This document shows, piece by piece, positions 3,633 through 56,710 of a stretch of 56,710 nucleotides of DNA. Source of the stretch: Candidatus Wildermuthbacteria bacterium (GTDB lineage Bacteria > Patescibacteriota > Minisyncoccia > Minisyncoccales > PEYH01). Within the stretch, counting starts at the first letter, position 1, and each line of letters opens with the position of its first letter. The translations under genes were made by a program, and so were the position numbers. Under the pieces are notes generated by a model. It was not told the DNA's origin, made no database searches, and saw only the letters and a program-made list of their open reading frames with translations. The stretch lies in assembly GCA_037445205.1 (NCBI GenBank), contig JBBIKX010000002.1, forward strand, positions 1 to 56,710, given 5' to 3'.

Positions 3633-4292
3633 TTAATTTAATTCGGACATCAGCTGATTTTGATTGCCATTGTCCGCATTTGTCGGATGTTCTGTCCGGT
3701 TTTCGGCGAGCCAATAAGCCACATCTTTCTGTCCATCTCTTTTTCTGGAAACTAATCCATTTTTTGCGAGCAGCTCCATATCTCTTCGCAGGGTTCTTGG
3801 GCTCACTCCTGAAAACACCCTTTTTAGCTCGGAAAGATTGATTCGTTTTTTATAATTTAAAAGATTCATTATTTTTTCCTGCCTTTTTTCGGGCGGAACC
3901 CGCACAACAAATACAAGATCTGTTTTCTTGGTTTTTTGAATGGGTTTTATGGACTGTTTTGATCCTAAAACGGCATCGGGCGATTCTTTGGTCTCCAGAG
4001 TCTCTTTTGCAGAAAGCCTTTCTAAAATTCTATCATATTCTTTTAAAATTATTAAAATGTTTTCTTCCTTGACCCAATTTTGAAAGCTCGCCACCCTTAA
4101 AAGAGCTTTTATTTTTTGTATTGAAGTGTTTATCAGTCCTCCTTTCAGGCCGCCGCTCTTGGCACAGATTAATTCTACCAATATCTGGTTTGCCATTTCT
4201 CTAATCTGGCTCTTTAAGGGCTCTCTTTCAGGAAAAAGACCGGTCACTCTATAAACGGACAAAGTTAGTTTTATAAAATAATCATTATCCAT
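3633..4292 (-). CDS. DeoR-type winged-HTH transcriptional regulator with an N-terminal helical-bundle domain
   Basis: C-terminal RINLSELKRVFSGVSPRTLRRDMELLAKNGLVSRK matches the DeoR HTH pattern. Confidence 0.65.
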   Translation of the reverse strand: MDNDYFIKLTLSVYRVTGLFPEREPLKSQIREMANQILVELICAKSGGLKGGLINTSIQKIKALLRVASFQNWVKEENILIILKEYDRILERLSAKETLETKESPDAVLGSKQSIKPIQKTKKTDLVFVVRVPPEKRQEKIMNLLNYKKRINLSELKRVFSGVSPRTLRRDMELLAKNGLVSRKRDGQKDVAYWLAENRTEHPTNADNGNQNQLMSELN

Positions 4293-4457: not shown

Positions 4458-4964
4458 ATGAAAATAGCGATTAAGAAACAATACCTAAGCTGGATAATAG
4501 TGATTGCAATATTGCTGGCTCTGGGCGTGCTTGCATATACTTACCGCCAGCCCGCAAAAGAAACCGGCCCATCAAATCAAGAAGCCTCTATAAGCGGCGC
4601 TCCGGAAGAAAATCTTGATGGAAATCTAAAAATTTCTGAAGTAAACGATCAAATTATAAACGACAAAAACGATAAAACAAAGACCTATGAAGAAACAGCC
4701 GAATACGGCGAGGGCATAACTCATCTTGCCAGAAAAGCAATGAAAAAATATTTTTCTCAACAGGGAGAAAATCCTGATTTAGCGCCGGAACATAAGGTTT
4801 ATATAGAAGATTATCTTCAGAACAAGCGCGGAGAAAGATGGCTTGAATTGGGAGAAAAAATAAGTTTTTCAAGCCAAGAAATTGAAGAAGCCATCCAAAA
4901 ATCTCTTGGATTAGGGCAGGAACAATTAAACAATCTTAGCCAGTTTGTTTTTGCCGTAGAATAA
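4458..4964 (+). CDS. Hypothetical membrane-anchored protein
   Basis: 168-aa ORF with N-terminal TM segment LSWIIVIAILLALGVLAY and no recognised motif. It is the only plus-strand ORF in a divergent intergenic context. Confidence 0.55.
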   Translation: MKIAIKKQYLSWIIVIAILLALGVLAYTYRQPAKETGPSNQEASISGAPEENLDGNLKISEVNDQIINDKNDKTKTYEETAEYGEGITHLARKAMKKYFSQQGENPDLAPEHKVYIEDYLQNKRGERWLELGEKISFSSQEIEEAIQKSLGLGQEQLNNLSQFVFAVE

Positions 4965-4975
4965 GACTTACAATT

Positions 4976-27820: not shown

Positions 27821-27907
27821 GCCGAGGTGACGGAATTGGCATTCGTGCACGACTCAAAATCGTGTGGACTTCGGTCCGTGAGGGTTCGACTCCCTCCCTC
27901 GGCACCA
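27821..27907 (+). tRNA. tRNA-Leu (anticodon CAA), long variable arm, CCA encoded
   Basis: Acceptor stem GCCGAGG/CCTCGGC, anticodon stem CACGA/TCGTG with loop CT-CAA-AA, variable arm TGGACTTCGGTCCG, T arm GAGGG-TTCGACT-CCCTC, then A-CCA. Confidence 0.9.
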
Positions 27908-35519: not shown

Positions 35520-35774
35520 TCAGATTCCCTCAATTTCTTTTAATTTCCATTTTTGACCGCCGACAGAGAGAATTATCAATTCGGCATTCTGGGCGGGCGT
35601 ATTTTTGGCGAGCAACGAAAAATTATATTTAAGATTTTGGGGGGCAATTTTTTCTCCGTGCTCTATAAAATCGCCCAATTCTACTTTAAGATAATTAATT
35701 TTTTTAAAACCGCTTTTTTTGGCGGTTTCTAGGGCAATTTTTAGAATTTGATCGGCCAAATGCAGATCGTGCAT
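35520..35774 (-). CDS. hypA: HypA-like nickel metallochaperone fragment (N-terminal MHD Ni-site domain only, no zinc CxxC domain)
   Basis: MHDLHLADQILKIALETAKKSGFKKINYLKVELGDF parallels HypA MHE...L.IG.F. The 84-aa protein has no Cys at all. Confidence 0.55.
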   Translation of the reverse strand: MHDLHLADQILKIALETAKKSGFKKINYLKVELGDFIEHGEKIAPQNLKYNFSLLAKNTPAQNAELIILSVGGQKWKLKEIEGI

Positions 35775-35801
35775 ACAATAAAATTATAAATTCTAATATC
35801 T

Positions 35802-35896
35802 AAATCCCAAACAAATTCAAAATTATTTAATTCTATTTTTTTCTTTTTGCGTTTTACATTGTAATTTTGCATTTTGAGATTTGCATTTTGCGTTTT
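35802..35896. repeat. Intergenic composite of the heptamer-mosaic repeat family (A-rich arm 35802-35824, T-rich arm 35847-35896)
   Basis: aaatcccaaacaaattcaaaatt is the exact reverse complement of leuS 40126-40148. The T-rich arm, ttgcgttttacattgtaattttgcattttgagatttgcattttgcgtttt, resembles the ileS inserts. Confidence 0.85.
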
Positions 35897-37168
35897 CTAA
35901 TGTGTTGCACAGCTAATGCATGGATCATATGCCCTGATAAGCATTTTTATTTTTCTCTCTTTTTCTTTAATATTCATTTTTTTAAGCCCGGGTAAAAATA
36001 ATTTTAAATCATTTTCCAGATTCTCCAGAAACTGGGCTGTCGGAGTAATAATTATACAATCTCTTATAACTCCTCTCTCGTCAATTTTATATATGTGAAA
36101 AAGGATGCCTCTGGGCGCCTCTATCGCAGCCACCCCCCAATTTGCTTTCTGGGGACGGGGCGATTCTTTTATGACCATATCTTTTTCGCTGTAGCTTCCT
36201 TTCAAAAAAATATCTGAAAGCTTTTGGAACTCTTCTAAAAAATGAATCAATTCTACCGACTGGGCAAAAACGTTGTGAAAAATATTATAATCTATTTCTG
36301 ATCCGAAGAACTGGTCAGCGATTTCCCCCGAAAGAGGATTAAGCTGTCTTTTATTGTTGTTGATGCGAGCCAAGGCGCCCACCATATAGCTTTGGCCCCT
36401 GTAATGTCCTCTTTTTACAACATCAAAGGGCGATTGAATTTCCGTTATTTTGGGCAAAAAACTTTTTATTTCTAAAGGATCTGCGTCTGAAGCGTCAATT
36501 TTACCATCATAAAATCCGTATTCGTTTTTTTCGCTCAGGGAAACAAATTCTGTTTTCCTTTGAAAATCCGGATAGGGAAGTTTTTTAAAAATTTTTGACA
36601 GAGAAATCGCATCTTTGAGGACAATCTTACACTTAGCCTGAAGTTCCTTTAATTTATCTATATCGGGCATCCTCCCAAATCCGCCGATCTTTGTGTTGGT
36701 TGTATGAATGGCTCTGCCTCCTATTGTTTCCACAAGACTATCAGAAAAAGCCCTGATATTGTTTGCCTGTTTCGTTTCTTTTTTTAATTTCTCTGTAAGC
36801 TTAATGCTTTCATCTGCCTTAAAATAATCAGGAAGGGTTAAAAAAAATAAATGCAGAGAGTGGCTTTGAATAATTTGGCCTATTAAAAGCATTTTGCGGA
36901 GAATTTTCACGCCCTCCGAAACTTTTATTTCCATTGCATCTTCCATCGCTTTAATGGAGCATAAATTATGGACTACGGGACAAATCCCGCAAATCCTTGA
37001 GGTGATCAGGGGTGCTTCATCATAATATCTGTCGATTACAATGCCCTCAACCAATCTGGCGCCCTGCCCTACTTCCAACTTAGCTTTTGTAACATTGCCC
37101 TTCAATATATGGCCGACAAAACCCATATGTCCTTCAATTTTTGCTATATGGTCAATGGTAATTTTCAT
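35897..37168 (-). CDS. [NiFe]-hydrogenase large subunit (group 3-like, 423 aa)
   Basis: N-terminal RICGICPVVH and C-terminal DPCISCATH Ni-Fe ligand motifs, and ITIDHIAKIEGH at the start. Confidence 0.9.
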   Translation of the reverse strand: MKITIDHIAKIEGHMGFVGHILKGNVTKAKLEVGQGARLVEGIVIDRYYDEAPLITSRICGICPVVHNLCSIKAMEDAMEIKVSEGVKILRKMLLIGQIIQSHSLHLFFLTLPDYFKADESIKLTEKLKKETKQANNIRAFSDSLVETIGGRAIHTTNTKIGGFGRMPDIDKLKELQAKCKIVLKDAISLSKIFKKLPYPDFQRKTEFVSLSEKNEYGFYDGKIDASDADPLEIKSFLPKITEIQSPFDVVKRGHYRGQSYMVGALARINNNKRQLNPLSGEIADQFFGSEIDYNIFHNVFAQSVELIHFLEEFQKLSDIFLKGSYSEKDMVIKESPRPQKANWGVAAIEAPRGILFHIYKIDERGVIRDCIIITPTAQFLENLENDLKLFLPGLKKMNIKEKERKIKMLIRAYDPCISCATH

Positions 37169-37925
37169 AATTTTTTTTTGTTTTTTGGCGAAATTCGTCT
37201 AAAAGGCCAAAAATCTCAAGCTTTTCTTCTATTTCTTTTTGGCTGGCAAACCTTTTTAATGATTTTTCCATTACAAACAAGTCGGAATCTTTTTTAAAAT
37301 CCCTGCAGGCAAGACAAAGCAAATCATTTTTAGGGCAGGGCGCTTGACATCCTCCCAAAACCCAAGGCCCAAAACATATCTTTTTCTGCAAAAGAAAACA
37401 TTCCTGTTTTCCAACGCGCGGGCATTCCTGGCAGACAGAAATTTGCCTGATTTTGGGCGTTTTTTTAGAAACAAGCTGGTTAATAACCGTTAAAAACTCT
37501 TCCGGATTTATGGGGCAGCCCGGAATAGTGAAATCAACTTTTACAAAATTATCTACTTCTCTGATTTCCGGATTGGCAATGCTCTTGTCATTTTTGTATA
37601 TTCCTCTAATAATCCTGTCTTTATCGCGATAATTTTTAATCTCCTGCACTCCTCCAAGAGCGGCGCAATTTCCAAGCACTATAAAAAGTCTGGATCTTTT
37701 TCGCGCTTCTTTTAATATCTTCATCTGCTTTTGGGTGATAGGCGTGCCTTCAGCAAAAACAACGTCAAATTTTTTGGGCCAATCTTTATCTTCAAGATAG
37801 CTGAATTCCAAAAACTCAACGTTTTTGTTTAAATCCAGCAATTTTTTGCCCAAAGTCAAAATGGCAATTTGGCAGCCTTCGCAAGAAGTTAAAGAAACGA
37901 TCCCTATTTTAAGTTTTTTCTTCAT
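37152..37925 (-). CDS. [NiFe]-hydrogenase small subunit (group 3 delta-like) with Cys-rich C-terminus
   Basis: SLTSCEGCQ, LGNCAALGG, IPGCP and C-terminal CQECP...C...C...CQAPCP...CLAC cluster ligands. Confidence 0.85.
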   Translation of the reverse strand: MKKKLKIGIVSLTSCEGCQIAILTLGKKLLDLNKNVEFLEFSYLEDKDWPKKFDVVFAEGTPITQKQMKILKEARKRSRLFIVLGNCAALGGVQEIKNYRDKDRIIRGIYKNDKSIANPEIREVDNFVKVDFTIPGCPINPEEFLTVINQLVSKKTPKIRQISVCQECPRVGKQECFLLQKKICFGPWVLGGCQAPCPKNDLLCLACRDFKKDSDLFVMEKSLKRFASQKEIEEKLEIFGLLDEFRQKTKKNYENYH

Positions 37926-37943
37926 AGAAAGAGAGGGGGAGAA

Positions 37944-38630
37944 TTATCGCTCTCCCCGGGCGTTTTCGTGTTTGATGGCGTCAAGGGTGTATTGTTTAAG
38001 AATTTCTCTCTGATGGGGGCTTATCGCCTGACAGATTATGCCGCGATGAATAGTTACAATATCTCCGAAGGATACAACCGGGCCTATCCTAATCTCGCGC
38101 GGCATAACTTCTGTTCTTGGACAAATCTTCAACGCAAGCCGCCCGTTCCTATAGACAATCTCGCAAAGATTGTCTATGCGGACTGATTCATCGTCAATTC
38201 GGGAAACTTCTGCCCAGCGCACGATACAGCGGTTGATGGCGAGAAGAGTTTCTGTTTGCTTTGACAGCTTATGTCTTGATAGAAGAACCTGATGGTTGTG
38301 GTGTGGCGAACCATTGGGCTTATTGTCTCTCCTTGGGAAGGATTTATCGGTGAGATCATTGCCGACAAAATATGCCTCAACCACATCTTGGGATAGAGGA
38401 TCTTTCTTGGCGTTATCTCCGATTAAACGGAGAAAGTGGCCGGCGTTGGGCAATGCAAGAATTACCTTTCGCGCAAGAATTGCCCTTTTCTTGCCGGAAC
38501 AAGCCAGGAAATTCTCTACTTCCAAAACACCGCCAGCCTGCACAGCACAGGCGCCATCCCTTAAGGGCCCCAGAACATAACGTCCGGCAAGCGCAAGTCC
38601 CCGCATATCTCCTCCTTTTTGCGCCGTCAT
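37944..38630 (-). CDS. GC-rich hypothetical protein embedded in the hydrogenase operon; C-terminal third is weakly HypC/HupF-like
   Basis: 228-aa ORF whose ATG overlaps the hypC stop (ATGA). An alternative start at 38606 follows aaaggaggag. The region RCIVRWAEV...GDIVTIHRGIICQAISPHQREILKQY parallels HypC MCLAIPYKV...DFVLVQNNAIIKKLTKKEAKETL. Similarity was judged by eye only. Confidence 0.6.
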   Translation of the reverse strand: MTAQKGGDMRGLALAGRYVLGPLRDGACAVQAGGVLEVENFLACSGKKRAILARKVILALPNAGHFLRLIGDNAKKDPLSQDVVEAYFVGNDLTDKSFPRRDNKPNGSPHHNHQVLLSRHKLSKQTETLLAINRCIVRWAEVSRIDDESVRIDNLCEIVYRNGRLALKICPRTEVMPREIRIGPVVSFGDIVTIHRGIICQAISPHQREILKQYTLDAIKHENARGER

Positions 38631-38830
38631 TTTCTTAAAAAGAGCTTTAATGTTTCTTTGGCTTCCTTTTTGGTAAGCTTTTTTATTATAGCATTATTCT
38701 GAACCAGCACAAAATCTTTGGGATTTACCTCAATTAAGCTGTTTTGAGCGGTTCTTTTCTCGCCCAACATATCAAGCTCTATTTTCCCGTCTTTTGTGCT
38801 AATTACTTTATAGGGTATGGCAAGGCACAT
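38627..38830 (-). CDS. hypC: Hydrogenase maturation chaperone HypC
   Basis: MCLAIP N-terminus, 67 aa, starting 4 nt after the leuS stop. Confidence 0.85.
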   Translation of the reverse strand: MCLAIPYKVISTKDGKIELDMLGEKRTAQNSLIEVNPKDFVLVQNNAIIKKLTKKEAKETLKLFLRK

Positions 38831-38833
38831 TTT

Positions 38834-41569
38834 TTAAACGACGAAATTGATTACTTTGTCTTTGACAAAGATTGTCTTTTTGATTTCTTTTTTATTGAGC
38901 CATTTTTGGATCTTGGGCGATTTTAAGACGATTTTTTGGGCTTCATTTTCGGAAATTCCAGCCGATGTCTCAATTTGATCCCGCACCCTTCCATTAACTT
39001 GCGCTACTAAAACCACCTTTTCATCTTCTATCAGCTCCTGATCATATTCCGGCCAACTTTCTTTAAAAATTGACTTGATTTGTTTGGGATTTGGAATTTG
39101 TGATTTGGGATTTGTTTGGAATTTGGAATTTATGATTTGGGATTTGCCGAGGAGTTGATGCAACTCCTCGGATATGTGCGGCGCGAATGGCGCCAATAGC
39201 CTAACTAACAACTCGCAATCTACAACCGATAACTCCTTTTCTTTCTCCATTTCGTTGACAAGCTCCATTATCGCGGCAATGGCAGTGTTGAATTTTTGCG
39301 CCTCAATATCTTGGGTAACCTTTTTAATTGTCTTATGAATTAATTTTTTAATTTTTTGATTTTGGATTTTTGATTTTTGATTTGTCTGGAATTTAAGATT
39401 TAGGATTGCGGATTTTTCAAAAAGTCGCCAAATTTTTTGAAGAAACCTCTGCGCTCCCAAAATCCCCTGCGAATCCCATGCAATCGGCTGATCAAAAGGC
39501 CCCATAAACATTTCATAAATTCTGAATGTATCAGCCCCGTATTTTTCAATAATTTCATCCGGGTTAATTACATTGCCCCGTGATTTGGACATTTTCTGGC
39601 CATCGGGCGCCAAAATAAGCCCGATTGTTTTTAATTTAGAAAACGGCTCTTTAAAGTTGATTATTTTGGAGTCGTATAAAGCTTTTATCCAAAAGCGGGC
39701 GTATAAAAGATGCAAAACCGCATGTTCTGCTCCCCCCACATAAAAATCCACCGGCAACCAGTATTTCAATAATTTCGAACCACCGCCCTTTTTCAAAAGG
39801 ACGGGGCCCAGCTCATCTGTAGATGGGCTGTGGTTTTGGATTTTAGATTTTGGATTTGAGCTTACGCAGTAGGCGATGAAGTACCAGCAAGATCCGGCCC
39901 ATTGAGGCATCGTGTTTGTCTCCCTTATCGCTTTGCCGTTGCATTTCGGGCATTTTGTTTCCTTCCAATCTTTAACTGCGGACAGCGGCGACTCACCCGT
40001 GCCTGTTGGCTGATATTTCTCAACTCTTGGAAGTTCAAGGGGCAGCTCTTTTTCCGGCAATGCCACCCATCCGGGATTTAACAATTCTCCTAGGTGAAAC
40101 TCTAAATTTTGAATTTTGAATTTTGAATTTTGAATTTGTTTGGGATTTGTAATTTGTAATTTGTAATTTTTTACTGTTTTTTCGCAATTTCCGCAAAAAA
40201 CAAGCGGGATCGGCTCTCCCCAATATCTTTGACGGGAAAAAATCCAATCGCGCAGCTTATAATTCACTGCTTCTTTAGCCAGATTTTTTTCGGCCAACCA
40301 TCTCGTTATTTCTTTTTTTGCTTTTTCGCTTTTTATCCCGTCAAAATTTCCTGATTTCATGAGAATTCCCTCTCCCTCATAAGCCCCATTATTTTTTTTT
40401 GAATTTTGGATTTGGAATTTAGACGGCCTTATAACTTCAATGATTTCTATGTTATATTTTTTAGCAAACTCATAATCTCTTTTATCGTGCGCCGGCACTC
40501 CCATAATGGCGCCGTACCCATAAGATAGCAAAACATAATCAGCGATATATATAGGGATTTTTTTCTGATTCGCCGGATTTATGGCTTTTATTCCTTCTAT
40601 TTCAACCCCTGTCTTGTCTTTTATTCCAGCAATCCTTTTTCTTTCTGTTTTCTTTTTTGCCTTTTTAAGATATTCTTTAACCTCCTCTATATTTTGGATT
40701 TTGGATTTTGGATTTTTGAAGAGCGAGGCAACGAATTCGTGTTCCGGAGCCAAAACTAAAAAAGTTGCGCCAAAAATCGTTTCCGGTCTTGTGGTGAACG
40801 ATTTGATGAATTCTTTTGAATTTTCAATTTGAGATTTGTAATTTATTTTGGCTTTGGAATTTATAATTTGAAATTTTATTATTGCTCCTTCTGATCTCCC
40901 TATCCAATTCCTTTGCATTTCTTTAATCTGTTCCGGCCAGTCCAATTTATCCAATCCCTGTAACAATTTCTCTGCATAATCGGTAATTCTTAAGACCCAT
41001 TGTTCAATTTTCTTTTTAACGACTGCCGCTTGGCACCTCTCGCATTTGCCGTCAATCACTTCCTCATTTGCCAGCCCGGTTTTGCAGGAAGGGCACCAGT
41101 TAATCGGCAGATTTGCCCGATAAGCCAGACCTCTTTCAAATAATTTGAGAAAAATCCATTGCGTCCATTTATAATATTCTGGGTCAGCAGTGGAAATCTC
41201 CCGCGACCAGTCATAGGAAAGCCCGATTCTTTTCATCTGCTCTTTGAATCTCTTAATGTTTTGCTTTGTGGTAATTTCGGGATGAATGCCTGTTTTTATG
41301 GCATAATTTTCTGCGGGCAGGCCAAAAGCATCCCAGCCCATGGGATGTAAAACATTATATCCTCTCATTCGCATATAATGGGCAATGACATCTGTTCCGA
41401 TATATCCTCGCGGGTGACCCACATGAAGTCCGGCGCCCGAAGGATAAGGAAACATATCTAAAATGTAAAGTTTTGGCTTTTCGGAATTGTCTTTTGCCTC
41501 AAAAATTCTTTCCTTTTCCCAAAGTTTTTGCCATTTTAACTCTATGTTTCCAGGGTCGTAACTCTTCAT
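38834..41569 (-). CDS. leuS: Leucyl-tRNA synthetase carrying seven in-frame low-complexity inserts
   Basis: HIGH-type GLHVGHPRGY, QKMSKSRGN and editing-domain and Zn-module motifs; 911 aa. Confidence 0.95.
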   Translation of the reverse strand: MKSYDPGNIELKWQKLWEKERIFEAKDNSEKPKLYILDMFPYPSGAGLHVGHPRGYIGTDVIAHYMRMRGYNVLHPMGWDAFGLPAENYAIKTGIHPEITTKQNIKRFKEQMKRIGLSYDWSREISTADPEYYKWTQWIFLKLFERGLAYRANLPINWCPSCKTGLANEEVIDGKCERCQAAVVKKKIEQWVLRITDYAEKLLQGLDKLDWPEQIKEMQRNWIGRSEGAIIKFQIINSKAKINYKSQIENSKEFIKSFTTRPETIFGATFLVLAPEHEFVASLFKNPKSKIQNIEEVKEYLKKAKKKTERKRIAGIKDKTGVEIEGIKAINPANQKKIPIYIADYVLLSYGYGAIMGVPAHDKRDYEFAKKYNIEIIEVIRPSKFQIQNSKKNNGAYEGEGILMKSGNFDGIKSEKAKKEITRWLAEKNLAKEAVNYKLRDWIFSRQRYWGEPIPLVFCGNCEKTVKNYKLQITNPKQIQNSKFKIQNLEFHLGELLNPGWVALPEKELPLELPRVEKYQPTGTGESPLSAVKDWKETKCPKCNGKAIRETNTMPQWAGSCWYFIAYCVSSNPKSKIQNHSPSTDELGPVLLKKGGGSKLLKYWLPVDFYVGGAEHAVLHLLYARFWIKALYDSKIINFKEPFSKLKTIGLILAPDGQKMSKSRGNVINPDEIIEKYGADTFRIYEMFMGPFDQPIAWDSQGILGAQRFLQKIWRLFEKSAILNLKFQTNQKSKIQNQKIKKLIHKTIKKVTQDIEAQKFNTAIAAIMELVNEMEKEKELSVVDCELLVRLLAPFAPHISEELHQLLGKSQIINSKFQTNPKSQIPNPKQIKSIFKESWPEYDQELIEDEKVVLVAQVNGRVRDQIETSAGISENEAQKIVLKSPKIQKWLNKKEIKKTIFVKDKVINFVV
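39074..39142 (-). repeat. Heptamer repeat insert 7 in leuS (encodes SQIINSKFQTNPKSQIPNPKQIK)
   Basis: Plus strand reads cttgatttgtttgggatttggaatttgtgatttgggatttgtttggaatttggaatttatgatttggg. Confidence 0.9.
39347..39400 (-). repeat. Heptamer repeat insert 6 in leuS (encodes NLKFQTNQKSKIQNQKIK)
   Basis: Plus strand reads ttttttgattttggatttttgatttttgatttgtctggaatttaagatt. Confidence 0.85.
39833..39859 (-). repeat. Heptamer repeat insert 5 in leuS (encodes SNPKSKIQN)
   Basis: Plus strand reads gttttggattttagattttggatttga. Confidence 0.85.
40103..40174 (-). repeat. Heptamer repeat insert 4 in leuS (encodes VKNYKLQITNPKQIQNSKFKIQNL)
   Basis: Plus strand reads (aattttg)x4, atttgtttgggattt, then (gtaattt)x3. 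It contains the 23-mer shared with 35802-35824. Confidence 0.9.
40394..40423 (-). repeat. Heptamer repeat insert 3 in leuS (encodes SKFQIQNSKK)
   Basis: Plus strand reads tttttttgaattttggatttggaatttaga. Confidence 0.85.
40691..40717 (-). repeat. Heptamer repeat insert 2 in leuS ((AAAATCC)n, encodes KNPKSKIQN)
   Basis: Plus strand reads attttgg attttgg attttgg attttt. Confidence 0.9.
40814..40873 (-). repeat. Heptamer-mosaic repeat insert 1 in leuS (encodes FQIINSKAKINYKSQIENSK)
   Basis: Plus strand reads ttgaattttcaatttgagatttgtaatttattttggctttggaatttataatttgaaa, made of NNATTTN 7-mers. Confidence 0.8.
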
Positions 41570-43549: not shown

Positions 43550-44299
43550 TTATTCCAGGGCAAGTTTGGCAAATTTTTTAATCTCACCTTTATATTTCAC
43601 CCAATTCTCAATAAAATCCCTGCAACCCTGTTCGTCGCCCATTATTTTAAGCAAAAATTTTCTCTCAGTCAGCGAGGGAAAATTCTTTTTGCCAAGATAG
43701 TCAAAATAGCTGGACCATCTATATTCTTCTTCTAAAAATTTAATTACTCTGTTTGGATTATTAATTCCAAACTCTTTCCATTTCGGTTCTGTGAAAGAAA
43801 TCGGATTAGCATGAATATACACAAAAACAGTTTTTAACTGCTCGTCGGTTTTAATATGGACGGCAGTAAATCTTCTGAGAAGAAGAGGGCCCTGGCGCCC
43901 ATATTTCCTATTGAAATATCCTCCGTAGCCAGTGTTAAGCTTTATCATAAACCTGATAATCCCCCTATCTTTAATTTGACGCAGAAGCAAATGAAAATGG
44001 TTTGGCATAATACAAAAAGCTAAGATCTCTACCAATTTATCCCTTAAATCAACAGAGGTTGGGCCTCTGTTGACTTCTTTTAGAAAATCCTGTTCTGCTT
44101 TTTTAATTTGGGTTTTTATTTTACTCCGCTCTTTCCGCCGCTCTCTAATTACCACTGGATTAGCATTGTTGAATTCATAGATGGAAAAAATCGCCCGATA
44201 ATTATCATCAGTGTCTTTAAAAAGCAAATTATCATCAATCCCCTTTATAACAATATGATAAATCTCATTATTAACAAATTGTTCTTTTCTATAAGGCAT
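43550..44299 (-). CDS. IS200/Y1-type (REP-associated tyrosine transposase, RAYT-like) transposase
   Basis: HUH motif MPNHFHLLL and catalytic Tyr context VYIHANPI; flanked by REP-like hairpins. Confidence 0.8.
   Translation of the reverse strand: MPYRKEQFVNNEIYHIVIKGIDDNLLFKDTDDNYRAIFSIYEFNNANPVVIRERRKERSKIKTQIKKAEQDFLKEVNRGPTSVDLRDKLVEILAFCIMPNHFHLLLRQIKDRGIIRFMIKLNTGYGGYFNRKYGRQGPLLLRRFTAVHIKTDEQLKTVFVYIHANPISFTEPKWKEFGINNPNRVIKFLEEEYRWSSYFDYLGKKNFPSLTERKFLLKIMGDEQGCRDFIENWVKYKGEIKKFAKLALE
44053..44069. repeat. REP-like hairpin, copy 2 (cagaggttgggcctctg), inside the RAYT coding sequence (encodes NRGPTSV)
   Basis: The 17-mer is identical to copy 3. Confidence 0.8.
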
Positions 44300-44437: not shown

Positions 44438-44504
44438 AAGGTGTTTAAGAGGATCAAGTCCTCAAGCGTTCAAGGCTCAGATCTGCCCCGTAGTGAGCTT
44501 CGCT

Positions 44505-45299
44505 CTACTGCGGGGACTTCCGAGCCGAGGCCACGCCGATGCGGAGATAGCGGCAATTATCCCAACAGCCGAAGACGCTCAGACCGCTCGAACCGAAGTA
44601 ACCGACGTCGACCCGGCTGCCGCCCGAATTGACAGAGGACGTGCGGACGTAGATGTTCTCGAAGAGCCGCTCCCCGGTTGCGAGGAAATGACCGATGATC
44701 GTGTAGACCATCACTTGGGCAGTCGGCGTTTCCTCGTTTTGGGCGAGAAGAGCGAGAAGAGCCTGCTGTTCATCCCAGGTCTTGGAGGTCGAGTTGTCGA
44801 CCGACGTCTTGCGGACAAACTGCCAGCGCACCTCTCCGCGGTTCTTGGCGAACGCATCTTTGTTGTACCAAGCGTCCTCGTGGCTGTAGAAGAGCTTGCG
44901 CTCGGCTTTGTCACGAATCTCAAGAATCGAGAGGGGGAACGCGGCAACAAGCACGTGCGTATCCTTCACTTTCCAGAGTTCTGATTCCGTGAACGGAATC
45001 TCAGCCAGTGCCGAGATTTGCGCTCGCGTCGGCTGAACCCTGAAGTGCTGGATCGCTTCTTCGACGCCAAAGTAGTTCTTGCCCATGATCTCGCGGGCAA
45101 GCTTCTGCGTCGTAGTCGGCTCGTAGCCGCCTGAGTTCCAGAAGCGCACCAGGTGCTTCCTCATTTCGGGATCGTCAATGGGGACTTGCAGGGCTTCCTC
45201 GATGGGAAGACCGGCCTGCCGCATCACACGAACCCACGTTGCCAGTTGACCAAGCTGCTTTTCTAACGCCACGTCCTGGTTCGCAATGGAGTTTACCAT
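44505..45299 (-). CDS. GC-rich hypothetical protein (264 aa from MVNSIANQ)
   Basis: Strong GC3 bias in this frame and AGGAGG 6 nt upstream of the ATG at 45299. It has its own promoter, leader and terminator. No family recognised. Confidence 0.7.
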   Translation of the reverse strand: MVNSIANQDVALEKQLGQLATWVRVMRQAGLPIEEALQVPIDDPEMRKHLVRFWNSGGYEPTTTQKLAREIMGKNYFGVEEAIQHFRVQPTRAQISALAEIPFTESELWKVKDTHVLVAAFPLSILEIRDKAERKLFYSHEDAWYNKDAFAKNRGEVRWQFVRKTSVDNSTSKTWDEQQALLALLAQNEETPTAQVMVYTIIGHFLATGERLFENIYVRTSSVNSGGSRVDVGYFGSSGLSVFGCWDNCRYLRIGVASARKSPQ

Positions 45300-45463: not shown

Positions 45464-45492
45464 ATGATAACATATTCTATTTCTTCTGTCAA
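45464..45492 (-). promoter_or_regulatory. Sigma70-like promoter (TTGACA, 17-nt spacer, TATCAT) overlapping the metG stop
   Basis: The minus strand reads ttgaca gaagaaatagaatatgt tatcat. Confidence 0.5.
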
Positions 45493-46943
45493 ATCCGAGG
45501 GAAAAGAGGACCGGTTTTTTTTGTTTTGAGTTGTTGGAGAATTTTTTCTGAGGTTTGGGGCAAAAACGGTTCAAGCAGTATGGCAATTTCTTTGATCGCT
45601 AACAATAAATTATTGATTGTTTTTTTCTGCTTGCCGGATTCTTCCCAGGGCCGCTCTTTTTCAATGTATTTATCGCAGAAAGCAATCAACTCCCAAATTG
45701 TAGTTAGTGCTTCATTGAACTTAAATTCCTCTATGACCTCTTTATAGTTCTTCCAAGTTTTATTTATTATTGTTTTGAGTTTTGAATTTTGGATTTGTTT
45801 AGGATTTAGGATTTGAGATTTGAGATTTAACTTGACGGCCACTGTAATTACCCTTGAAACAAGATTTCCCAAACCAGCCGCTAAATCGGCATTATATCTC
45901 TTCTTAAATTTATCGCAAGAAAAATCCAAATCGTCAAAAGGAGAGGCCTCTCTCAAAAGGAAATATCTGACCGCATCAACTCCGTATCTTGCGGCAAGAT
46001 CTTCGGGAGACACCACATTGCCCAAGGACTTAGACATTTTCTGGCCATTGGCCGTCACATAACCATGCACAAATAATTTATCCGGCAAAGAAATCCCAGC
46101 AGAAAGCAGGGCGGCCGGCCAATACAAAGAATGAAAAATCAAAATGCCTTTTCCAATGATATGCGTTTTATTCTGGTTTTCCTGCCACCAATCTTTGAAC
46201 CTTTTTTCATCTTCGCCATAGCCCAAAGCGCTGATATAATTGATTACCGCATCCCACCAGCACCAAAAAATCTGACCTTCATCACCGGGCACAGGAATAC
46301 CCCAATTTTTTGCTCGTCCTGAAGAGCGGGAAATACAGATATCTTCTAGCCCTTTGTTGATGAATCCCAAAACTTCATTTTTGCGCGATTGGGGGATAAT
46401 TTTTAAAACATCGCTTTCTATTAATTTTTTAAGCTTTTTTTCGTATTTAGAAAGCTTAAAAAAATAATTTTCCTCTTCAACCAGCTCCGGCGCGATTTTG
46501 TGCTCTGGGCAAAGCTTATCAGTCAATTCTTCTTCTTTATAAAATTGTTCGCACCCGACGCAATAAAGCCCTCTGTATTTTTTCTTATAAACGTCTTTTT
46601 TGCATCTCTCCCAAAGATTATAAACCGATTTAATATGCCTTTTTTCAGTAGTTCTAATAAAATCATCAAAAGAAAGGTTAAGAATTTCTTTTAATTTTAA
46701 AAAAGCGTCCGCGTTTTTTTTAGAGAATTTATCGGGTGAGATTCCCGCCTCTTCTGCCGCCCGCGCAATTTTTAAACCGTTTTCGTCTGTGCCGGTAAGA
46801 AAAAAAACCTCTTTTCCCAGCGCGCGATAATGGCGCGCCAAAACATCCGCCTGAATAAGTTCAAGGGCAAATCCGATATGAGGCAAGGAGTTAACATACG
46901 GCAGGGCGGTAGAAAAATAATATTTTTGATTATCTTTTGGCAT
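45489..46943 (-). CDS. metG: Methionyl-tRNA synthetase (short form) with one in-frame repeat insert
   Basis: LPHIGF (HIGH-like), QKMSKSLGN and the CVGCEQ...CPEH knuckle. Confidence 0.95.
   Translation of the reverse strand: MPKDNQKYYFSTALPYVNSLPHIGFALELIQADVLARHYRALGKEVFFLTGTDENGLKIARAAEEAGISPDKFSKKNADAFLKLKEILNLSFDDFIRTTEKRHIKSVYNLWERCKKDVYKKKYRGLYCVGCEQFYKEEELTDKLCPEHKIAPELVEEENYFFKLSKYEKKLKKLIESDVLKIIPQSRKNEVLGFINKGLEDICISRSSGRAKNWGIPVPGDEGQIFWCWWDAVINYISALGYGEDEKRFKDWWQENQNKTHIIGKGILIFHSLYWPAALLSAGISLPDKLFVHGYVTANGQKMSKSLGNVVSPEDLAARYGVDAVRYFLLREASPFDDLDFSCDKFKKRYNADLAAGLGNLVSRVITVAVKLNLKSQILNPKQIQNSKLKTIINKTWKNYKEVIEEFKFNEALTTIWELIAFCDKYIEKERPWEESGKQKKTINNLLLAIKEIAILLEPFLPQTSEKILQQLKTKKTGPLFPRI
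45774..45833 (-). repeat. Heptamer-mosaic repeat insert in metG (encodes KLNLKSQILNPKQIQNSKLK)
   Basis: Plus strand reads ttgagttttgaattttggatttgtttaggatttaggatttgagatttgagatttaac. It shares the NPKQIQNSK-coding module with leuS insert 4. Confidence 0.9.
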
Positions 46944-53880: not shown

Positions 53881-56710
53881 TTATTTATCTACTCTTTTTG
53901 CGGACAATCGTATTCTGTCGTTGCCAAGAAATGACTCTTTTAGAATATCATATCCTTCTCTTGGAATTTCAGAACAATATTTAATAGCATTAATTTTAGT
54001 ATGCAAAAGAATTGATTTCTGGCTTCTGATTATAATCTTTTTTATGGCTTCTGGCGATGCGATATACAGATCAACTTTGTCTTTGGGCGTATATCTGGCT
54101 CCCTTCCTCATATCCTGTATCAGCCGAATGATATCCCTTAAAATTCCCTCTTCTATGAGTTGAGGAGTCAGTTTTGTATTTAGCTCAAAATTTTTGCCAA
54201 AGGTAATTTTTTTAACGTTAATCTCTTCTTTGATAAGATCCAGCAGCTCTTTATTTTTTGCAAGTTCACGGTGAGTAATTTTTAATTCTTCCAGGGGCTG
54301 GCGCACTTTTATTTTATTTTGCGCTCTTTGAGCCAAAACTTTGCCAACGATTTCTCTTGCCTTGGCCATTTTTTCTTCAAGGCTTCTGTCAATCAGCCCT
54401 TTATTGACCCTTGGCCAATTTTCCAAATGAACGCTTTTGACCTTTGATTTTGCGTCAGAGATTCCCTTTGGGCGCAAAATATAGCTTTGATTTTGAAGAT
54501 TTTGATAAATTGCTTCGCTTAAAAACGGAATAAAAGGGGCGGTCAGCTTGATTATATCTGAAAGCAGCCGGAATAAAACAAGCGAAGCCTTTTCTAATTC
54601 TCCTTTGCTTTGTGGTTGTTGAAATCTTTTTCGTGAGCGTCTTATATACCACAAAGAAAAATCGTCTATAATAAAATCTTCTATCAGCCGGGCGGCAGAA
54701 GTAATGTCGTAGTTCTCTAATTTCTTTGTTGTCTCTGATACCAAATTATTAAATCTTGATAAAATCCATTTATCTAAAATATGAATTTTTGCTTGTTTGA
54801 ACGATTTTTCATTTTGTGCTTCATGTTTTCCGTTTTTGGCGTATGTTTCGTAAAAAACACAGCAGTTCCAAAGAGTAAGTATAAGTTTTCTAAAACTTTC
54901 TTCCACCTCTTTTTGAGAGAATATCTTCGATTCCCCGGGCTGATTAATAATGTAAAAATGCCATCTTAGGGCGTCTGACCCGCTCTTATCAATTATCTGC
55001 CAAGGATTAACGACATTGCCTTTTGATTTAGACATTTTTTCTCCTTTTTCATCTAAAATGTGACCCAAAGAAATAACGTTTTTATAGGGCGATTTAAATC
55101 CCAAAAGGGTGGAAATTGCCAGGAGCGTGTAAAACCATCCTCTTGTCTGGTCAATTGCTTCAGAAATATAATCGGCCGGAAATAATTCCGGGGGTTTCAA
55201 GCTTTGCATTTTACATTCTGCATTTTGCGTTTGAGCGCAAGCGAACGGGAAGTGAGCTTGCGCGAACGGCATTGCGCCCGAATCAAACCAGCAGTCAATA
55301 ACTTCCGGAACTCTTTTCATTTTTCCGTTGCATTTGGAACAGAAAAATTCAACTTCGTCAATATAGGGCCGGTGGAAATCAAGCTCGCCAGCCAAATTGT
55401 AGCCAAACTGTTTATATTCCCACTGCCGGTATTGTCCTGTGCCAAAATCCCATGCTTTTTGGGGGCTCATTAATTCCTCTTTTGCCCAGCCGAAAGACAA
55501 ACTTTCAAGCATCAAAAGGGGCAGTTTGTGGCTGACGATCAAAATGTTTTTATCCCCGTGATTTGTTTCAATCTCTTTTATGAAATCCAAGACCCTTTGT
55601 TTGACCTGAAAATAGTTCTCTCCTTTTGGAAATCCTTGCTGATATTTTTTGAAAAGTATTTCCTCTTTTTTCAGCTTGTTTGCGGGGTCAAAAAAATTAT
55701 CGCCCTCTTTTATGGATTTAGCGTTTAGTTCCCCCGTATCCAATTCTCTCAAGCGTGCATCGTAAAACGGTTTGATGCCCAGTGCTTCCCCGACAATCTC
55801 AGCTGTCTGTTTTGTTCTTAAAATGTCTGAAGAAAAAATAATGTCTATTTCTTCTTTTTTGAGAGAGCGAACCGCTTTTTCAACCTCTTTTTCTCCTTTT
55901 TTTGTAAGCGGAACTTGTTTTGCTTCTGGGAAAGAGGAATAAAAATTTTGCGCATTGGACACTGCTTCTCCGTGCCTTAAAAGAAAATATTTGTTAGTGC
56001 TGAATTTTTGTTTTTTCAAATCCTCTCTTGAGCCAATGACCTCTTGATGGCCGCATTGACCGCAATTCCATATTGGCAGCGGAGTGCCCCAATATCTTTC
56101 CCGCGAAAGCGCCCAATCTTTCAAATCGCTCAGCCACTCGCCAAATCTCCCGTCTTTTATATGTCCGGGGATCCAATTTATTTGCTGATTGTTTTCAATC
56201 AATTCTTTTTTAATCTGCGTTGTTTTTATATACCAGCTCAATTTTGCGTAATACAAAAGCGGGGTTTTACATCTCCAACAGAATGGGTAATCGTGTTCAT
56301 AATCTTTAACTCCAAATATTTTATTTTCGTTTTTAAGATGTTCTATAATCAGAGGGTCGGCTTTTTTTACAAACATTCCCGTCCATTTTCTAACTTCCGG
56401 CCCAAATTTTCCCTCTCCGTCAACGGTTAATAAAACTGGGAACTCCGGTTCTTTTTGCATTTTGCATTTTGCATTTTGCATTTTTATTAATTCCATATCT
56501 TCTTCTCCGAAGGCAGGAGCAATATGGACAAGGCCGGTTCCTTCTTGAGTGCTAACAAATTCTCCGGATAAAATCTTATAAATATTTTTAAATTCTTCTG
56601 GGAAAGAAAGCGTTTTTTCGTCAAAAATCGGCGCATAAGGCAGGCCGACCAATTTTTTTCCCTTTATCTTCCAAACTACCTCAAAATCATTGCCAAAAAT
56701 TTCTTTTCTT
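53881..56710 (-). CDS. ileS: Isoleucyl-tRNA synthetase; N-terminus lies beyond the window end; carries a nested histidine-phosphatase domain and two repeat inserts
   Basis: The reading frame stays open upstream of the track's TTG start (…RKEIFGNDFEVVWKIKGKKLVGLPY). Motifs include EKMSKSKGN, DCWFDSG, WALSRERYWGTPLPIW and the CxxC pairs. Confidence 0.95.
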   Translation of the reverse strand, partial: RKEIFGNDFEVVWKIKGKKLVGLPYAPIFDEKTLSFPEEFKNIYKILSGEFVSTQEGTGLVHIAPAFGEEDMELIKMQNAKCKMQKEPEFPVLLTVDGEGKFGPEVRKWTGMFVKKADPLIIEHLKNENKIFGVKDYEHDYPFCWRCKTPLLYYAKLSWYIKTTQIKKELIENNQQINWIPGHIKDGRFGEWLSDLKDWALSRERYWGTPLPIWNCGQCGHQEVIGSREDLKKQKFSTNKYFLLRHGEAVSNAQNFYSSFPEAKQVPLTKKGEKEVEKAVRSLKKEEIDIIFSSDILRTKQTAEIVGEALGIKPFYDARLRELDTGELNAKSIKEGDNFFDPANKLKKEEILFKKYQQGFPKGENYFQVKQRVLDFIKEIETNHGDKNILIVSHKLPLLMLESLSFGWAKEELMSPQKAWDFGTGQYRQWEYKQFGYNLAGELDFHRPYIDEVEFFCSKCNGKMKRVPEVIDCWFDSGAMPFAQAHFPFACAQTQNAECKMQSLKPPELFPADYISEAIDQTRGWFYTLLAISTLLGFKSPYKNVISLGHILDEKGEKMSKSKGNVVNPWQIIDKSGSDALRWHFYIINQPGESKIFSQKEVEESFRKLILTLWNCCVFYETYAKNGKHEAQNEKSFKQAKIHILDKWILSRFNNLVSETTKKLENYDITSAARLIEDFIIDDFSLWYIRRSRKRFQQPQSKGELEKASLVLFRLLSDIIKLTAPFIPFLSEAIYQNLQNQSYILRPKGISDAKSKVKSVHLENWPRVNKGLIDRSLEEKMAKAREIVGKVLAQRAQNKIKVRQPLEELKITHRELAKNKELLDLIKEEINVKKITFGKNFELNTKLTPQLIEEGILRDIIRLIQDMRKGARYTPKDKVDLYIASPEAIKKIIIRSQKSILLHTKINAIKYCSEIPREGYDILKESFLGNDRIRLSAKRVDK
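55201..55239 (-). repeat. Degenerate AAAATGC-type repeat in-frame in ileS (encodes CAQTQNAECKMQS)
   Basis: Plus strand reads gctttgcattttacattctgcattttgcgtttgagcgca, which resembles the T-rich arm at 35847-35896. Confidence 0.8.
55408..55998 (-). other. Histidine phosphatase superfamily (PGAM-like, RHG) domain inserted in-frame in ileS
   Basis: KYFLLRHGEAVSN (RHG), LTKKGEKEVEKA, IIFSSDILRTKQTAEIV (second Arg), RELDTGEL (Glu) and NILIVSHK (second His) occur in the canonical order over about 195 aa. Confidence 0.75.
56452..56484 (-). repeat. (AAAATGC)n heptamer repeat in-frame in ileS (encodes KMQNAKCKMQK)
   Basis: Plus strand reads tttttgcattttgcattttgcattttgcatttt. Confidence 0.9.

Follow-up and report, generated by a model that had tools for sequence, protein, structure and literature searches.

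The leucyl-tRNA synthetase (LeuRS) gene leuS of a Candidatus Wildermuthbacteria bacterium (Patescibacteria) carries seven translated arrays of a heptanucleotide repeat, which form part of an intact open reading frame (ORF). The gene lies on contig JBBIKX010000002.1 of assembly GCA_037445205.1, analysed here over its 56,710 nucleotides and referred to below as the window. The arrays are tandem, variable and fast-evolving, and relatives carry them at the same loops with different units and lengths. Such blocks are probably heptanucleotide simple-sequence-repeat arrays that evolve in place, filtered by reading frame, stop codons and hydropathy; the K/N/Q/S/P-rich peptides that they encode are most likely tolerated, near-neutral surface loops.

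The leuS gene occupies positions 38834-41569 of the minus strand, which carries most genes of the window (∼40% G+C), and appears in the ORF listing as an intact frame of 911 amino acids. Its product aligns end to end with the Thermus thermophilus LeuRS 1h3n (E = 1e-209), and homologues from Patescibacteria reach ∼90% identity to it. The seven array sites, ∼13% of LeuRS, are built from the sense-strand heptamer MAAATYM (in the forms AAAATCC, AAAATTC, CAAATCC, CAAATTC, CAAATTA and CAAATCA), together with occasional 4-nt CAAA remnants, which yield the 11-mer CAAACAAATYC. A regular-expression scan for arrays of at least 21 nt finds ten on the window's minus strand and one on the plus strand. Eight of the ten fall within leuS, which makes up 4.8% of the window (40857-40877 and 40818-40845, 40696-40716, 40401-40421, 40104-40170, 39838-39858, 39357-39402, 39076-39146), and the remaining two lie in the MetRS and IleRS genes. 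Tandem Repeats Finder (TRF) reports the arrays of the window at period 7 with 3.4–9.6 copies, several at 100% identity, the units being joined head to tail. An earlier note, made on this DNA from the letters alone, had described the same seven blocks, and its coordinates, unit types and peptides (KSKIQN, NPKQIQNSKFKIQN, KFQTNPKSQIPNPKQ) agree with ours, as does the sense orientation of all seven; the excess is real, since second-order Markov shuffles predict 0.08 minus-strand arrays against the ten observed.

All seven sites are read from the minus strand. Site 1 (40805-40880), at the entry to the editing (CP1) domain, runs AAAATTT CAAATTA TAAATTC ... TAAATTA CAAATCT CAAATTG AAAATTC, encodes KFQIINSKAKINYKSQIENSKEF, and is 13 amino acids longer than in array-less relatives. 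Site 2 (40691-40720) consists of (AAAATCC)×3.7 at 100% identity and encodes KNPKSKIQN; its array of 26 nt corresponds to a net gain of only 15 nt (5 amino acids), less than the array length. Site 3 (40397-40424; TAAATTC CAAATCC AAAATTC) encodes SKFQIQNSK in an editing-domain loop, and site 4 (40100-40175; (AAATTAC)×3, CAAATCC, CAAA, (AAAATTC)×4.7) encodes KNYKLQITNPKQIQNSKFKIQN within a 37-residue stretch (residues 463-499) that has no counterpart between residues 442 and 443 of T. thermophilus LeuRS. Site 5 (39834-39860; CAAATCC AAAATCT AAAATCC AAAA) encodes NPKSKIQN and is interrupted on its 3′ side by a 54-nt element. Site 6 (39353-39425), in the anticodon-binding domain, comprises CAAATCA AAAATCA AAAATCC AAAATCA with degenerate units 5′ of these, and encodes LNLKFQTNQKSKIQNQK. 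Site 7 (39074-39148), in the linker before the C-terminal domain, contains 2.2 copies of a 32-nt higher-order unit made of four heptamers plus CAAA (TRF period 32, 94% matches); it encodes KSQIINSKFQTNPKSQIPNPKQIK, a net gain of ∼20 amino acids.

Alignments to 1h3n and to 22 homologues bear out the earlier observation that the blocks separate conserved LeuRS segments and are lineage-specific extras relative to other LeuRS. The closest homologues all belong to Patescibacteria (source names Nealsonbacteria, Portnoybacteria, Parcubacteria and Pacebacteria). The shortest of the 22 (776–792 amino acids) are without most blocks, while many others show low-complexity sequence at the same columns. At least one perfect 6-mer of a pure array peptide (e.g., KIQNPKS, KIQNSKF, KFQIPNS, KSQIPNP, KIKNQKS or KSQISNL) occurs in 53 of the 120 best LeuRS homologues, and arrays recur at the same loops across lineages that share only 50–65% identity.

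No public assembly gave an exact match to the LeuRS of the window on look-up. Comparison with the closest gene, that of locus L121 (protein P0001; NCBI GCA_964383555.1; 94.4% nucleotide identity), places most of the change in the arrays: array blocks show 12.5% mismatch and contain all 66 gap columns, against 4.5% and no gaps in the rest of the gene. L121 has arrays at all seven sites, five almost the same as in the window, with sites 4 and 6 differing in unit content. At site 4, for the same total length, the window has (AAATTAC)×3 then CAAATCC and L121 has AAAATTC, CAAATCC, GAAATCA and AAAATCA; site 6 of L121, 12 nt shorter than in the window, is built from a different unit family (AAAACGC/AAAGCGC). 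The DNA of five further relatives has still other units (AAATTCC, AAATTTC, AAAACTC, AAAATCC) at the same loops, so that same loops with different arrays are seen at the DNA level in six relatives, and also in the MetRS of several lineages. Where proteins that cluster at 90% identity or above differ in length, they do so at array loops; site 1, for example, differs by 13 amino acids between P0006 and P0126.

The earlier note proposed that the blocks had spread by insertion of an element, a claim that the relatives do not bear out. The blocks have no inverted repeats, terminal repeats, target-site duplication or fixed length, and at a given loop both unit and length differ between relatives. Three further observations argue against cassette insertion: arrays of zero net length, anchoring of arrays on local conserved codons, and decayed arrays. 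Site 1 of P0010 is (AAATTTC)×4.7, equal in length to 18 ordinary residues of the array-less P0002, and even P0113, at 776 amino acids, has KIQNSKFKIQ at this site. The conserved KFQI of site 1 reads AAATTTCAAATT, which is itself 1.7 heptamers; at the other sites, array-less relatives have A-rich Lys/Asn/Glu codons. Site 3 of P0011 (CCAAAGT TCGAAGT CCAAAAT) is a decayed array.

Several other readings of the blocks were rejected. RNA folding rules out a palindrome or hairpin, in agreement with the earlier note (−0.3 to −1.4 kcal/mol); three of the four blocks folded do no better than shuffles, and the fourth (39074-39148) has z = −3.1 yet only −0.3 kcal/mol. A known RNA element or intron is likewise rejected, an Rfam scan of the whole window having matched only tRNA-Leu(CAA) (27821-27907, plus strand, just downstream of topA), the one RNA gene detected there. 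Selection for a protein heptad (coiled coil) does not fit, as the periodicity is exact at 7 nt and not merely at 21 nt, and the spacing of hydrophobic residues is unsuited.

The array positions are clearly insertion-tolerant. At the site 1 loop, relatives hold a Y1 transposase domain (P0106) or a serine hydrolase (P0019), and at the site 3 loop a serine hydrolase (P0049) or NUDIX domains (P0015, P0104); both loops are thus tolerant of whole foreign domains. An AlphaFold model built on the 22-homologue alignment (mean predicted local distance difference test score, pLDDT, 71) falls below 50 at model residues 239-250, 387-392, 556-613, 721-735 and 809-829, which are sites 1, 3, 5, 6 and 7. Five of the seven inserts thus lie in segments modelled at low confidence, with sites 2 and 4 at intermediate confidence.

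Insertions of other kinds occur as well. The IleRS gene of the window (53881-56709, minus strand) contains a complete histidine-phosphatase (His_Phos_1) domain within the synthetase, at residues ∼242-411 of the partial ORF, and class I synthetases of the clade appear to be frequent recipients of whole-domain insertions. Site 4 of a Portnoybacteria leuS (L128 3420-3520) holds a perfect 21-nt unit, AGTCAGCGTCAATCTGCGTTT, which LeuRS alleles sharing 90% identity or more (863, 870 and 877 amino acids) have once, twice or three times; in L128 it is adjoined by a second 21-nt duplication (QINADKE). These 7-residue steps were considered as heptamer slippage and rejected, the unit being 21 nt long and not three heptamers; the copy-number polymorphism shows loop permissiveness, not heptamer slippage.

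Some LeuRS arrays are themselves interrupted by hairpins. The 54-nt G+C-rich double-hairpin insertion in the site 5 array (39780-39833, minus strand) encodes HSPSTDELGPVLLKKGGG and is a single clean 54-nt gap relative to L121, whose site 5 array runs uninterrupted; it includes a 10-bp inverted repeat and folds as RNA at −27.6 kcal/mol (z = −3.3). In all, short G+C-rich hairpin insertions lie inside LeuRS heptamer arrays of three lineages, each with a length divisible by 3 (the window, 54 nt; L126, ∼4045-4065, 21 nt; L127, ∼4933-4968, 36 nt), the arrays of close relatives being uninterrupted. A repeated element was considered for the 54-nt hairpin; BLAST of the 56.7-kb window and all loci examined gave no second copy. 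Separately, a perfect 11-bp hairpin abuts the site 7 array at 39147-39171 (plus strand, CCGAGGAGTTG-ATG-CAACTCCTCGG). Read in sense, one arm consists of conserved S-E-E-L codons and the other is an inverted copy encoding QLLG; L121 shares the hairpin, and the residues at this place in more distant relatives are unrelated. Its form suggests a template-switch (quasi-palindrome) mutation that became fixed in coding sequence.

TRF (score ≥40, at least 2.8 copies) was also applied to 1.24 Mb of related loci, comprising the window, eight loci retrieved through an exact protein match and a further 80 from metagenomes that contain a leuS relative; these metagenome relatives are at most 59% identical and serve for statistics, not for within-population polymorphism. 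Counts in coding and non-coding DNA, respectively, are 65 and 20 for period 7, 0 and 1 for period 6, 3 and 3 for period 8, 7 and 5 for period 9, and 9 and 3 for period 12, so that within genes period 7 exceeds each in-frame period about seven-fold or more. Of the 85 period-7 arrays, 65 lie inside ORFs, a distribution that is not predominantly intergenic. Per kb, period-7 arrays are ∼3 times denser in non-coding DNA, which is what the removal of most coding arrays by selection would lead one to expect.

Array propensity is lineage-specific and is not a simple product of AT-richness: with distance from the window lineage, the number of arrays per 100 kb drops from 21 through 10.5 to 1.7 at near-constant G+C (37–41%), which AT-richness alone is insufficient to explain. 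The repeat is nonetheless not confined to this clade. A scan of GTDB (one genome per species) for four consecutive MAAATYM units, a pattern of our own choice and so uninformative on other heptamers, returned at least 120 loci. The matches listed include Cyanobacteria (many Nostocales), Bacteroidota, Acidobacteriota, Chloroflexota, Verrucomicrobiota, Planctomycetota and Patescibacteria, with (AAAATCC)n and (AAAATTC)n also found in Nostoc, Anabaena and Tolypothrix. Among these listed matches, many arrays are sense-oriented inside long ORFs of real genes, such as those for a non-ribosomal peptide synthetase, GlmS, CTP synthase, EPSP synthase, homogentisate dioxygenase, a sugar transporter and several tRNA synthetases; those antisense in long ORFs involve only units with a stop-free complement, one host protein containing GILDLGF.

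Orientation is strongly biased. In the window and five close loci (149 kb), 31 arrays are coding and in sense, none is antisense, and two are intergenic; across the 1.24-Mb set, the A-rich strand is in sense in 51 coding arrays and the T-rich strand in seven. The earlier note attributed the bias to stop codons on the antisense strand, an account that is incomplete. Antisense stops are present for AAAATTC, AAATTAC and AAATCTC, and absent for AAAATCC, AAATCCC, AAATTCC and AAAATGC; the complements of the first three of these (GGATTTT, GGGATTT and GGAATTT) contain no stop when repeated in tandem. Of 24 coding arrays without stops on either strand, 21 are still A-rich in sense and two T-rich, so that stops do not suffice as the cause. 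The strands also differ in the peptides that they encode, with the A-rich strand giving hydrophilic K/I/Q/N/P/S peptides (mean Kyte-Doolittle −0.9 to −2.1; e.g., KIQNPKS, −1.8) and the complement G/F/W/I/L/D peptides (+0.4 to +2.1; e.g., antisense GFWILDF, +1.3). A hydropathy filter and an origin in A-rich sense codons both predict the bias, and the two are inseparable here. In L123, leuS lies on the plus strand and the MetRS and TatD genes on the minus strand, with all arrays A-rich in sense; orientation therefore tracks the coding strand, not the replication strand.

A heptamer array is read through all three frames in turn and yields a heptapeptide repeat. Where coding arrays shift phase, they mostly do so through a 4-nt remnant (12 cases), a heptamer short by exactly 3 nt, and such shortened units explain the recurrence of the 11-mer CAAACAAATYC as well as the 32-nt higher-order units; the sample from non-coding DNA, at five junctions, is too small to show the remnant as a filter specific to coding DNA. 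All assembled leuS alleles examined are in frame, and the earlier contention that selection must filter for frame and for the absence of stops stands. A second 32-nt higher-order unit occurs at site 1 of the P0004 leuS (L123 10714-10780; AAATTCC AAATTCC AAGCACC AAATTCC AAAC, twice), with the same 4×7+4 architecture as site 7 of the window and a different sequence.

Outside leuS, the window has three further places with arrays. The MetRS gene (45489-46943) carries TAAATCT CAAATCT CAAATCC TAAATCC TAAA CAAATCC AAAATTC at 45784-45829 (minus strand), and the IleRS gene (53881 to the window end) carries (AAAATGC)×4.6 at 56453-56484 (minus strand), at 100% identity and encoding KMQNAKCKMQ. Arrays of opposing orientation lie in the intergenic region at 35780-35896, between hypA and the gene for the [NiFe]-hydrogenase large subunit, that at 35801-35825 being A-rich on the plus strand (the sole plus-strand array) and that at 35845-35896 on the minus strand. 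Within this spacer of 118 nt, the opposed arrays could pair as an imperfect hairpin, and the 35801-35825 array contains the 11-mer CCAAACAAATTC, also found in coding arrays.

Host genes are skewed towards those for aminoacyl-tRNA synthetases. In the window and close relatives they encode LeuRS, MetRS, IleRS, a class II synthetase (tRNA-synt_2b family) and one TatD. In the 1.24-Mb set, leuS holds ∼46–49 of the 65 coding arrays, in a collection where every locus was chosen for having leuS and where leuS makes up an estimated ∼20% of coding length; among the other hosts are genes for MetRS (four loci), a class II synthetase, IleRS, TatD, a methylase, pyruvate oxidoreductase, FtsW and dodecin. Outside LeuRS, 6 of 16 arrays in the larger set are in synthetases, and in a sample drawn by DNA pattern only, three of eight Patescibacteria hosts are synthetases (GluRS, PheRS and LeuRS), with a binomial probability of ∼0.005 on the assumption that synthetases make up 5% of coding length. 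The MetRS of L123, L124, L125, L145 and L154 carry period-7 arrays with other units, which in L124, L125 and L154 stand, by coordinate arithmetic, at about the position of the window's MetRS array. The synthetase bias looks real, and could stem from many permissive loops or from a benefit of lysine-rich loops for tRNA binding.

These observations are best accommodated by heptanucleotide arrays that evolve in place. Arrays would arise and turn over by slipped-strand mispairing or unequal exchange on Lys/Asn-type codons such as AAATTTCAAATT, be homogenised, and then decay through point mutation. Purifying selection on an essential gene would retain only net lengths that are a multiple of 3, the permitted states being sets of three units (21 nt) or units that have lost 3 nt, with CAAA as the heptamer minus 3 nt. 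Selection would further demand a stop-free, hydrophilic, loop-compatible peptide and, together with A-rich seeds on the sense strand, would fix the orientation of the arrays.

A number of observations weigh against this account. A lone 7-nt duplication frameshifts an essential gene, so that the birth of an array needs multi-unit or compensated events, which are not directly observed, and slippage itself would be deduced from assembled sequences, not seen in reads. One and the same small set of units (AAAATCC, AAAATTC, AAATTCC, AAATCCC) is met with at every site and again in distant phyla, which could indicate a common sequence-specific process instead of independent local seeding; the 11-mer CCAAACAAATTC is present also in the intergenic array at 35801-35825, which is free of the reading-frame filter. 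The fall in density with phylogenetic distance at similar G+C leaves AT-richness alone insufficient, and the strong skew of hosts towards aminoacyl-tRNA synthetases is not what a purely neutral model would predict.

This skew speaks for a reading in which slippage supplies the arrays and positive selection retains them, lysine-rich disordered KxQN-type loops adding non-specific affinity for tRNA or other RNA, or some other interaction. Modelled on the lysine-rich appendages of eukaryotic synthetases, it addresses maintenance and can coexist with turnover in place; we consider it unlikely, if the least so of the rivals. Beyond the hosts themselves (LeuRS, MetRS, IleRS and class II, with 6 of 16 outside LeuRS and three of eight in the pattern sample), it would draw on the persistence of arrays at the same loops across lineages of 50–65% identity and on the 53 of 120 best homologues with pure array peptides. 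The peptide sequence, however, is unconserved between close relatives, where unit families are swapped, and many relatives that are presumably functional have no inserts at most sites. The same loops accept unrelated whole domains and dissimilar 21-nt repeats (SQRQSAF), which argues for permissiveness and not for a specific need, and the hosts include proteins that are not synthetases (TatD, methylase, pyruvate oxidoreductase, FtsW, UvrA and a Mur ligase).

A bolder combination would have a lineage-restricted, sequence-specific process seed A(3-4)T(1-2)C(1-3) heptamers in genes and intergenic DNA across several phyla (Cyanobacteria, Chloroflexota, Acidobacteriota, Bacteroidota, Planctomycetota and Patescibacteria), with KIQNPKS/KIQNSKF-type loops kept preferentially in Patescibacteria synthetases for their function. 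The process could reside in the machinery of replication or repair, or in a templated-repeat enzyme that has escaped recognition. We hold this to be a long shot; if it were true, seeded heptapeptide loops would be a regular source of new loop sequence in minimal proteomes.

Less probable again is the model of the earlier note, in which a small non-palindromic mobile element (or, in a variant of the model, a dedicated templated-repeat enzyme) inserts heptamer cassettes at many sites, of which only the stop-free, in-frame sense copies survive in genes. It would account for the recurrence of the unit family, the 11-mer and the 32-nt modules across sites, genes and species, and once in intergenic DNA; for the occurrence of the same (AAAATCC)n and (AAAATTC)n arrays in genes of all seven phyla named above; and for lineage-specific array density at constant G+C. 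A gene for a HUH Y1 enzyme resembling REP-associated tyrosine transposases (RAYT; REP, repetitive extragenic palindromic) also lies ∼2 kb from leuS. Against this stand the arrays' want of termini, target-site duplication and fixed length, the array with zero net insertion at site 1 of P0010, the fit of units to local conserved codons (KFQI, site 1) and the gradient from perfect to decayed arrays. Only four of 209 sequences (the window, L091, L125 and L146) have the Y1 gene, whose distribution does not follow that of the arrays, and the persistence of orientation bias for units that are stop-free on both strands calls for a second filter in any case.

The Y1 gene itself (43550-44299, minus strand) is intact, has HFHLL and YIHANP motifs and lies between tatD and prs/leuS. 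It matches Pfam Y1_Tnp, and scores 40.8 bits against the NCBIfam model for REP-associated tyrosine transposases, below the cut-off of 80; a G+C-rich hairpin is found upstream of it (44486-44515), and a homologue occupies the same place in L125 (9189-9872). A link between this gene and the arrays was considered and rejected, as the loci with tblastn homologues show no correlation with array load. On the other side of leuS, directly downstream, is a hydrogenase cluster (35520-38833) comprising a HypC-sized ORF, DUF6390, an Oxidored_q6 small subunit, a NiFeSe large subunit and HypA, with synteny kept in L121 and L122.

A contingency locus (a frameshift switch, or phase variation) or an artefact of assembling low-complexity sequence is scarcely credible: certain pathogens (Haemophilus) do owe phase variation to heptanucleotide repeats and low-complexity repeats are known to trouble assemblers, but the hosts are single-copy essential genes whose off state would be lethal, the arrays are short (3–5 perfect units), the ORF is intact in every assembly examined, and independent NCBI, JGI, ENA and Logan assemblies share arrays at the same loops. 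The artefact, which the earlier note had named as a possible refutation, is very unlikely because the independent NCBI assembly L121 and many others carry arrays at the same loops.

Essential genes would be expected to exclude tandem repeats with a unit length that three does not divide; here, such repeats dominate the in-gene repeat spectrum of a whole Patescibacteria clade. A repeat class usually confined to intergenic DNA can thus build fast-evolving protein segments in housekeeping genes, and the arrays offer a natural example of a mutational process that, shaped by selection on frame, stops and hydropathy, generates disordered protein loops. They also explain part of the length variation and alignment noise in marker proteins of the candidate phyla radiation, which matters for phylogenomics and annotation. 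Literature searches on the repeat, its peptides and synthetase insertions in the candidate phyla radiation found no description of it.

Among known systems, Rickettsia palindromic elements, to which the earlier note likened the blocks, are defined elements of 100–150 bp with a conserved consensus and a stable palindromic fold. The likeness holds for the outcome, namely an in-frame extra peptide in essential genes that is compatible with function, at the surface and lineage-specific, the intact leuS, metS and ileS ORFs of the window all carrying arrays; it does not extend to architecture or mechanism, as the blocks are direct tandem repeats of 21–75 nt without a fold or consensus ends, different in length and unit at every site. 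Transposable and miniature mobile elements differ in a similar way, since the arrays have no termini and the net length change is below the array length or zero. The Asn/Lys-rich insertions of Plasmodium falciparum proteins, including aminoacyl-tRNA synthetases, are alike in that an AT-rich genome encodes hydrophilic, low-complexity, fast-evolving segments, presumably derived by slippage, between conserved blocks of housekeeping enzymes in presumed surface loops; the Plasmodium repeats are, however, mostly codon-based (period 3), whereas the present ones have period 7, heptapeptide periodicity and a bacterial host. With phase-variable contingency loci the arrays share a unit that is not a multiple of 3 within an ORF, where a change of one unit shifts the frame, but those loci are long arrays in dispensable surface or restriction-modification genes, in contrast to short mosaic arrays in essential hosts that are found only in in-frame states. 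As to the hairpins, a secondary feature only, small dispersed repeats are reportedly nested in Nostoc heptamer arrays (an observation attributed to Elhai in 2008), a situation that the G+C-rich hairpins inside the present arrays recall. Together with the RAYT-like gene in the window, they also recall REP elements and REPINs (paired REP sequences) with their RAYT transposases (PMC3116915); the hairpins are, however, in frame within a gene, and none of the three gave a second copy in the sequences examined, repetition being the defining property of such elements.

The closest relatives are the heptanucleotide repeats of other bacteria, among them the short tandemly repeated repetitive (STRR) sequences said to have been described from heterocystous cyanobacteria by Mazel in 1990. 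Heptamers are reported to be the most over-represented long repeat unit in bacteria, and the cause put forward is slippage of the polymerase (Mrazek, Guo and Shah 2007, as cited in PMC4692102 and PMC4679880). Bacterial heptanucleotide repeats are described as mainly intergenic (STRR, the GGGNATC repeats of Xanthomonas and Nostoc, the TAACTGA repeats of Beggiatoaceae), and units that are a multiple of 3 are reported as those tolerated in genes. The present arrays resemble these repeats in their tandem 7-nt units, in variable copy number and unit, in the dominance of period 7, and in their dispersal as many short arrays (11 in the window and 85 at period 7 in 1.24 Mb). They differ in that 65 of the 85 lie in genes, in frame, in essential housekeeping genes, and are translated. 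Heptanucleotide repeats as such are known; what is new here is that they have colonised essential coding sequence and are translated.

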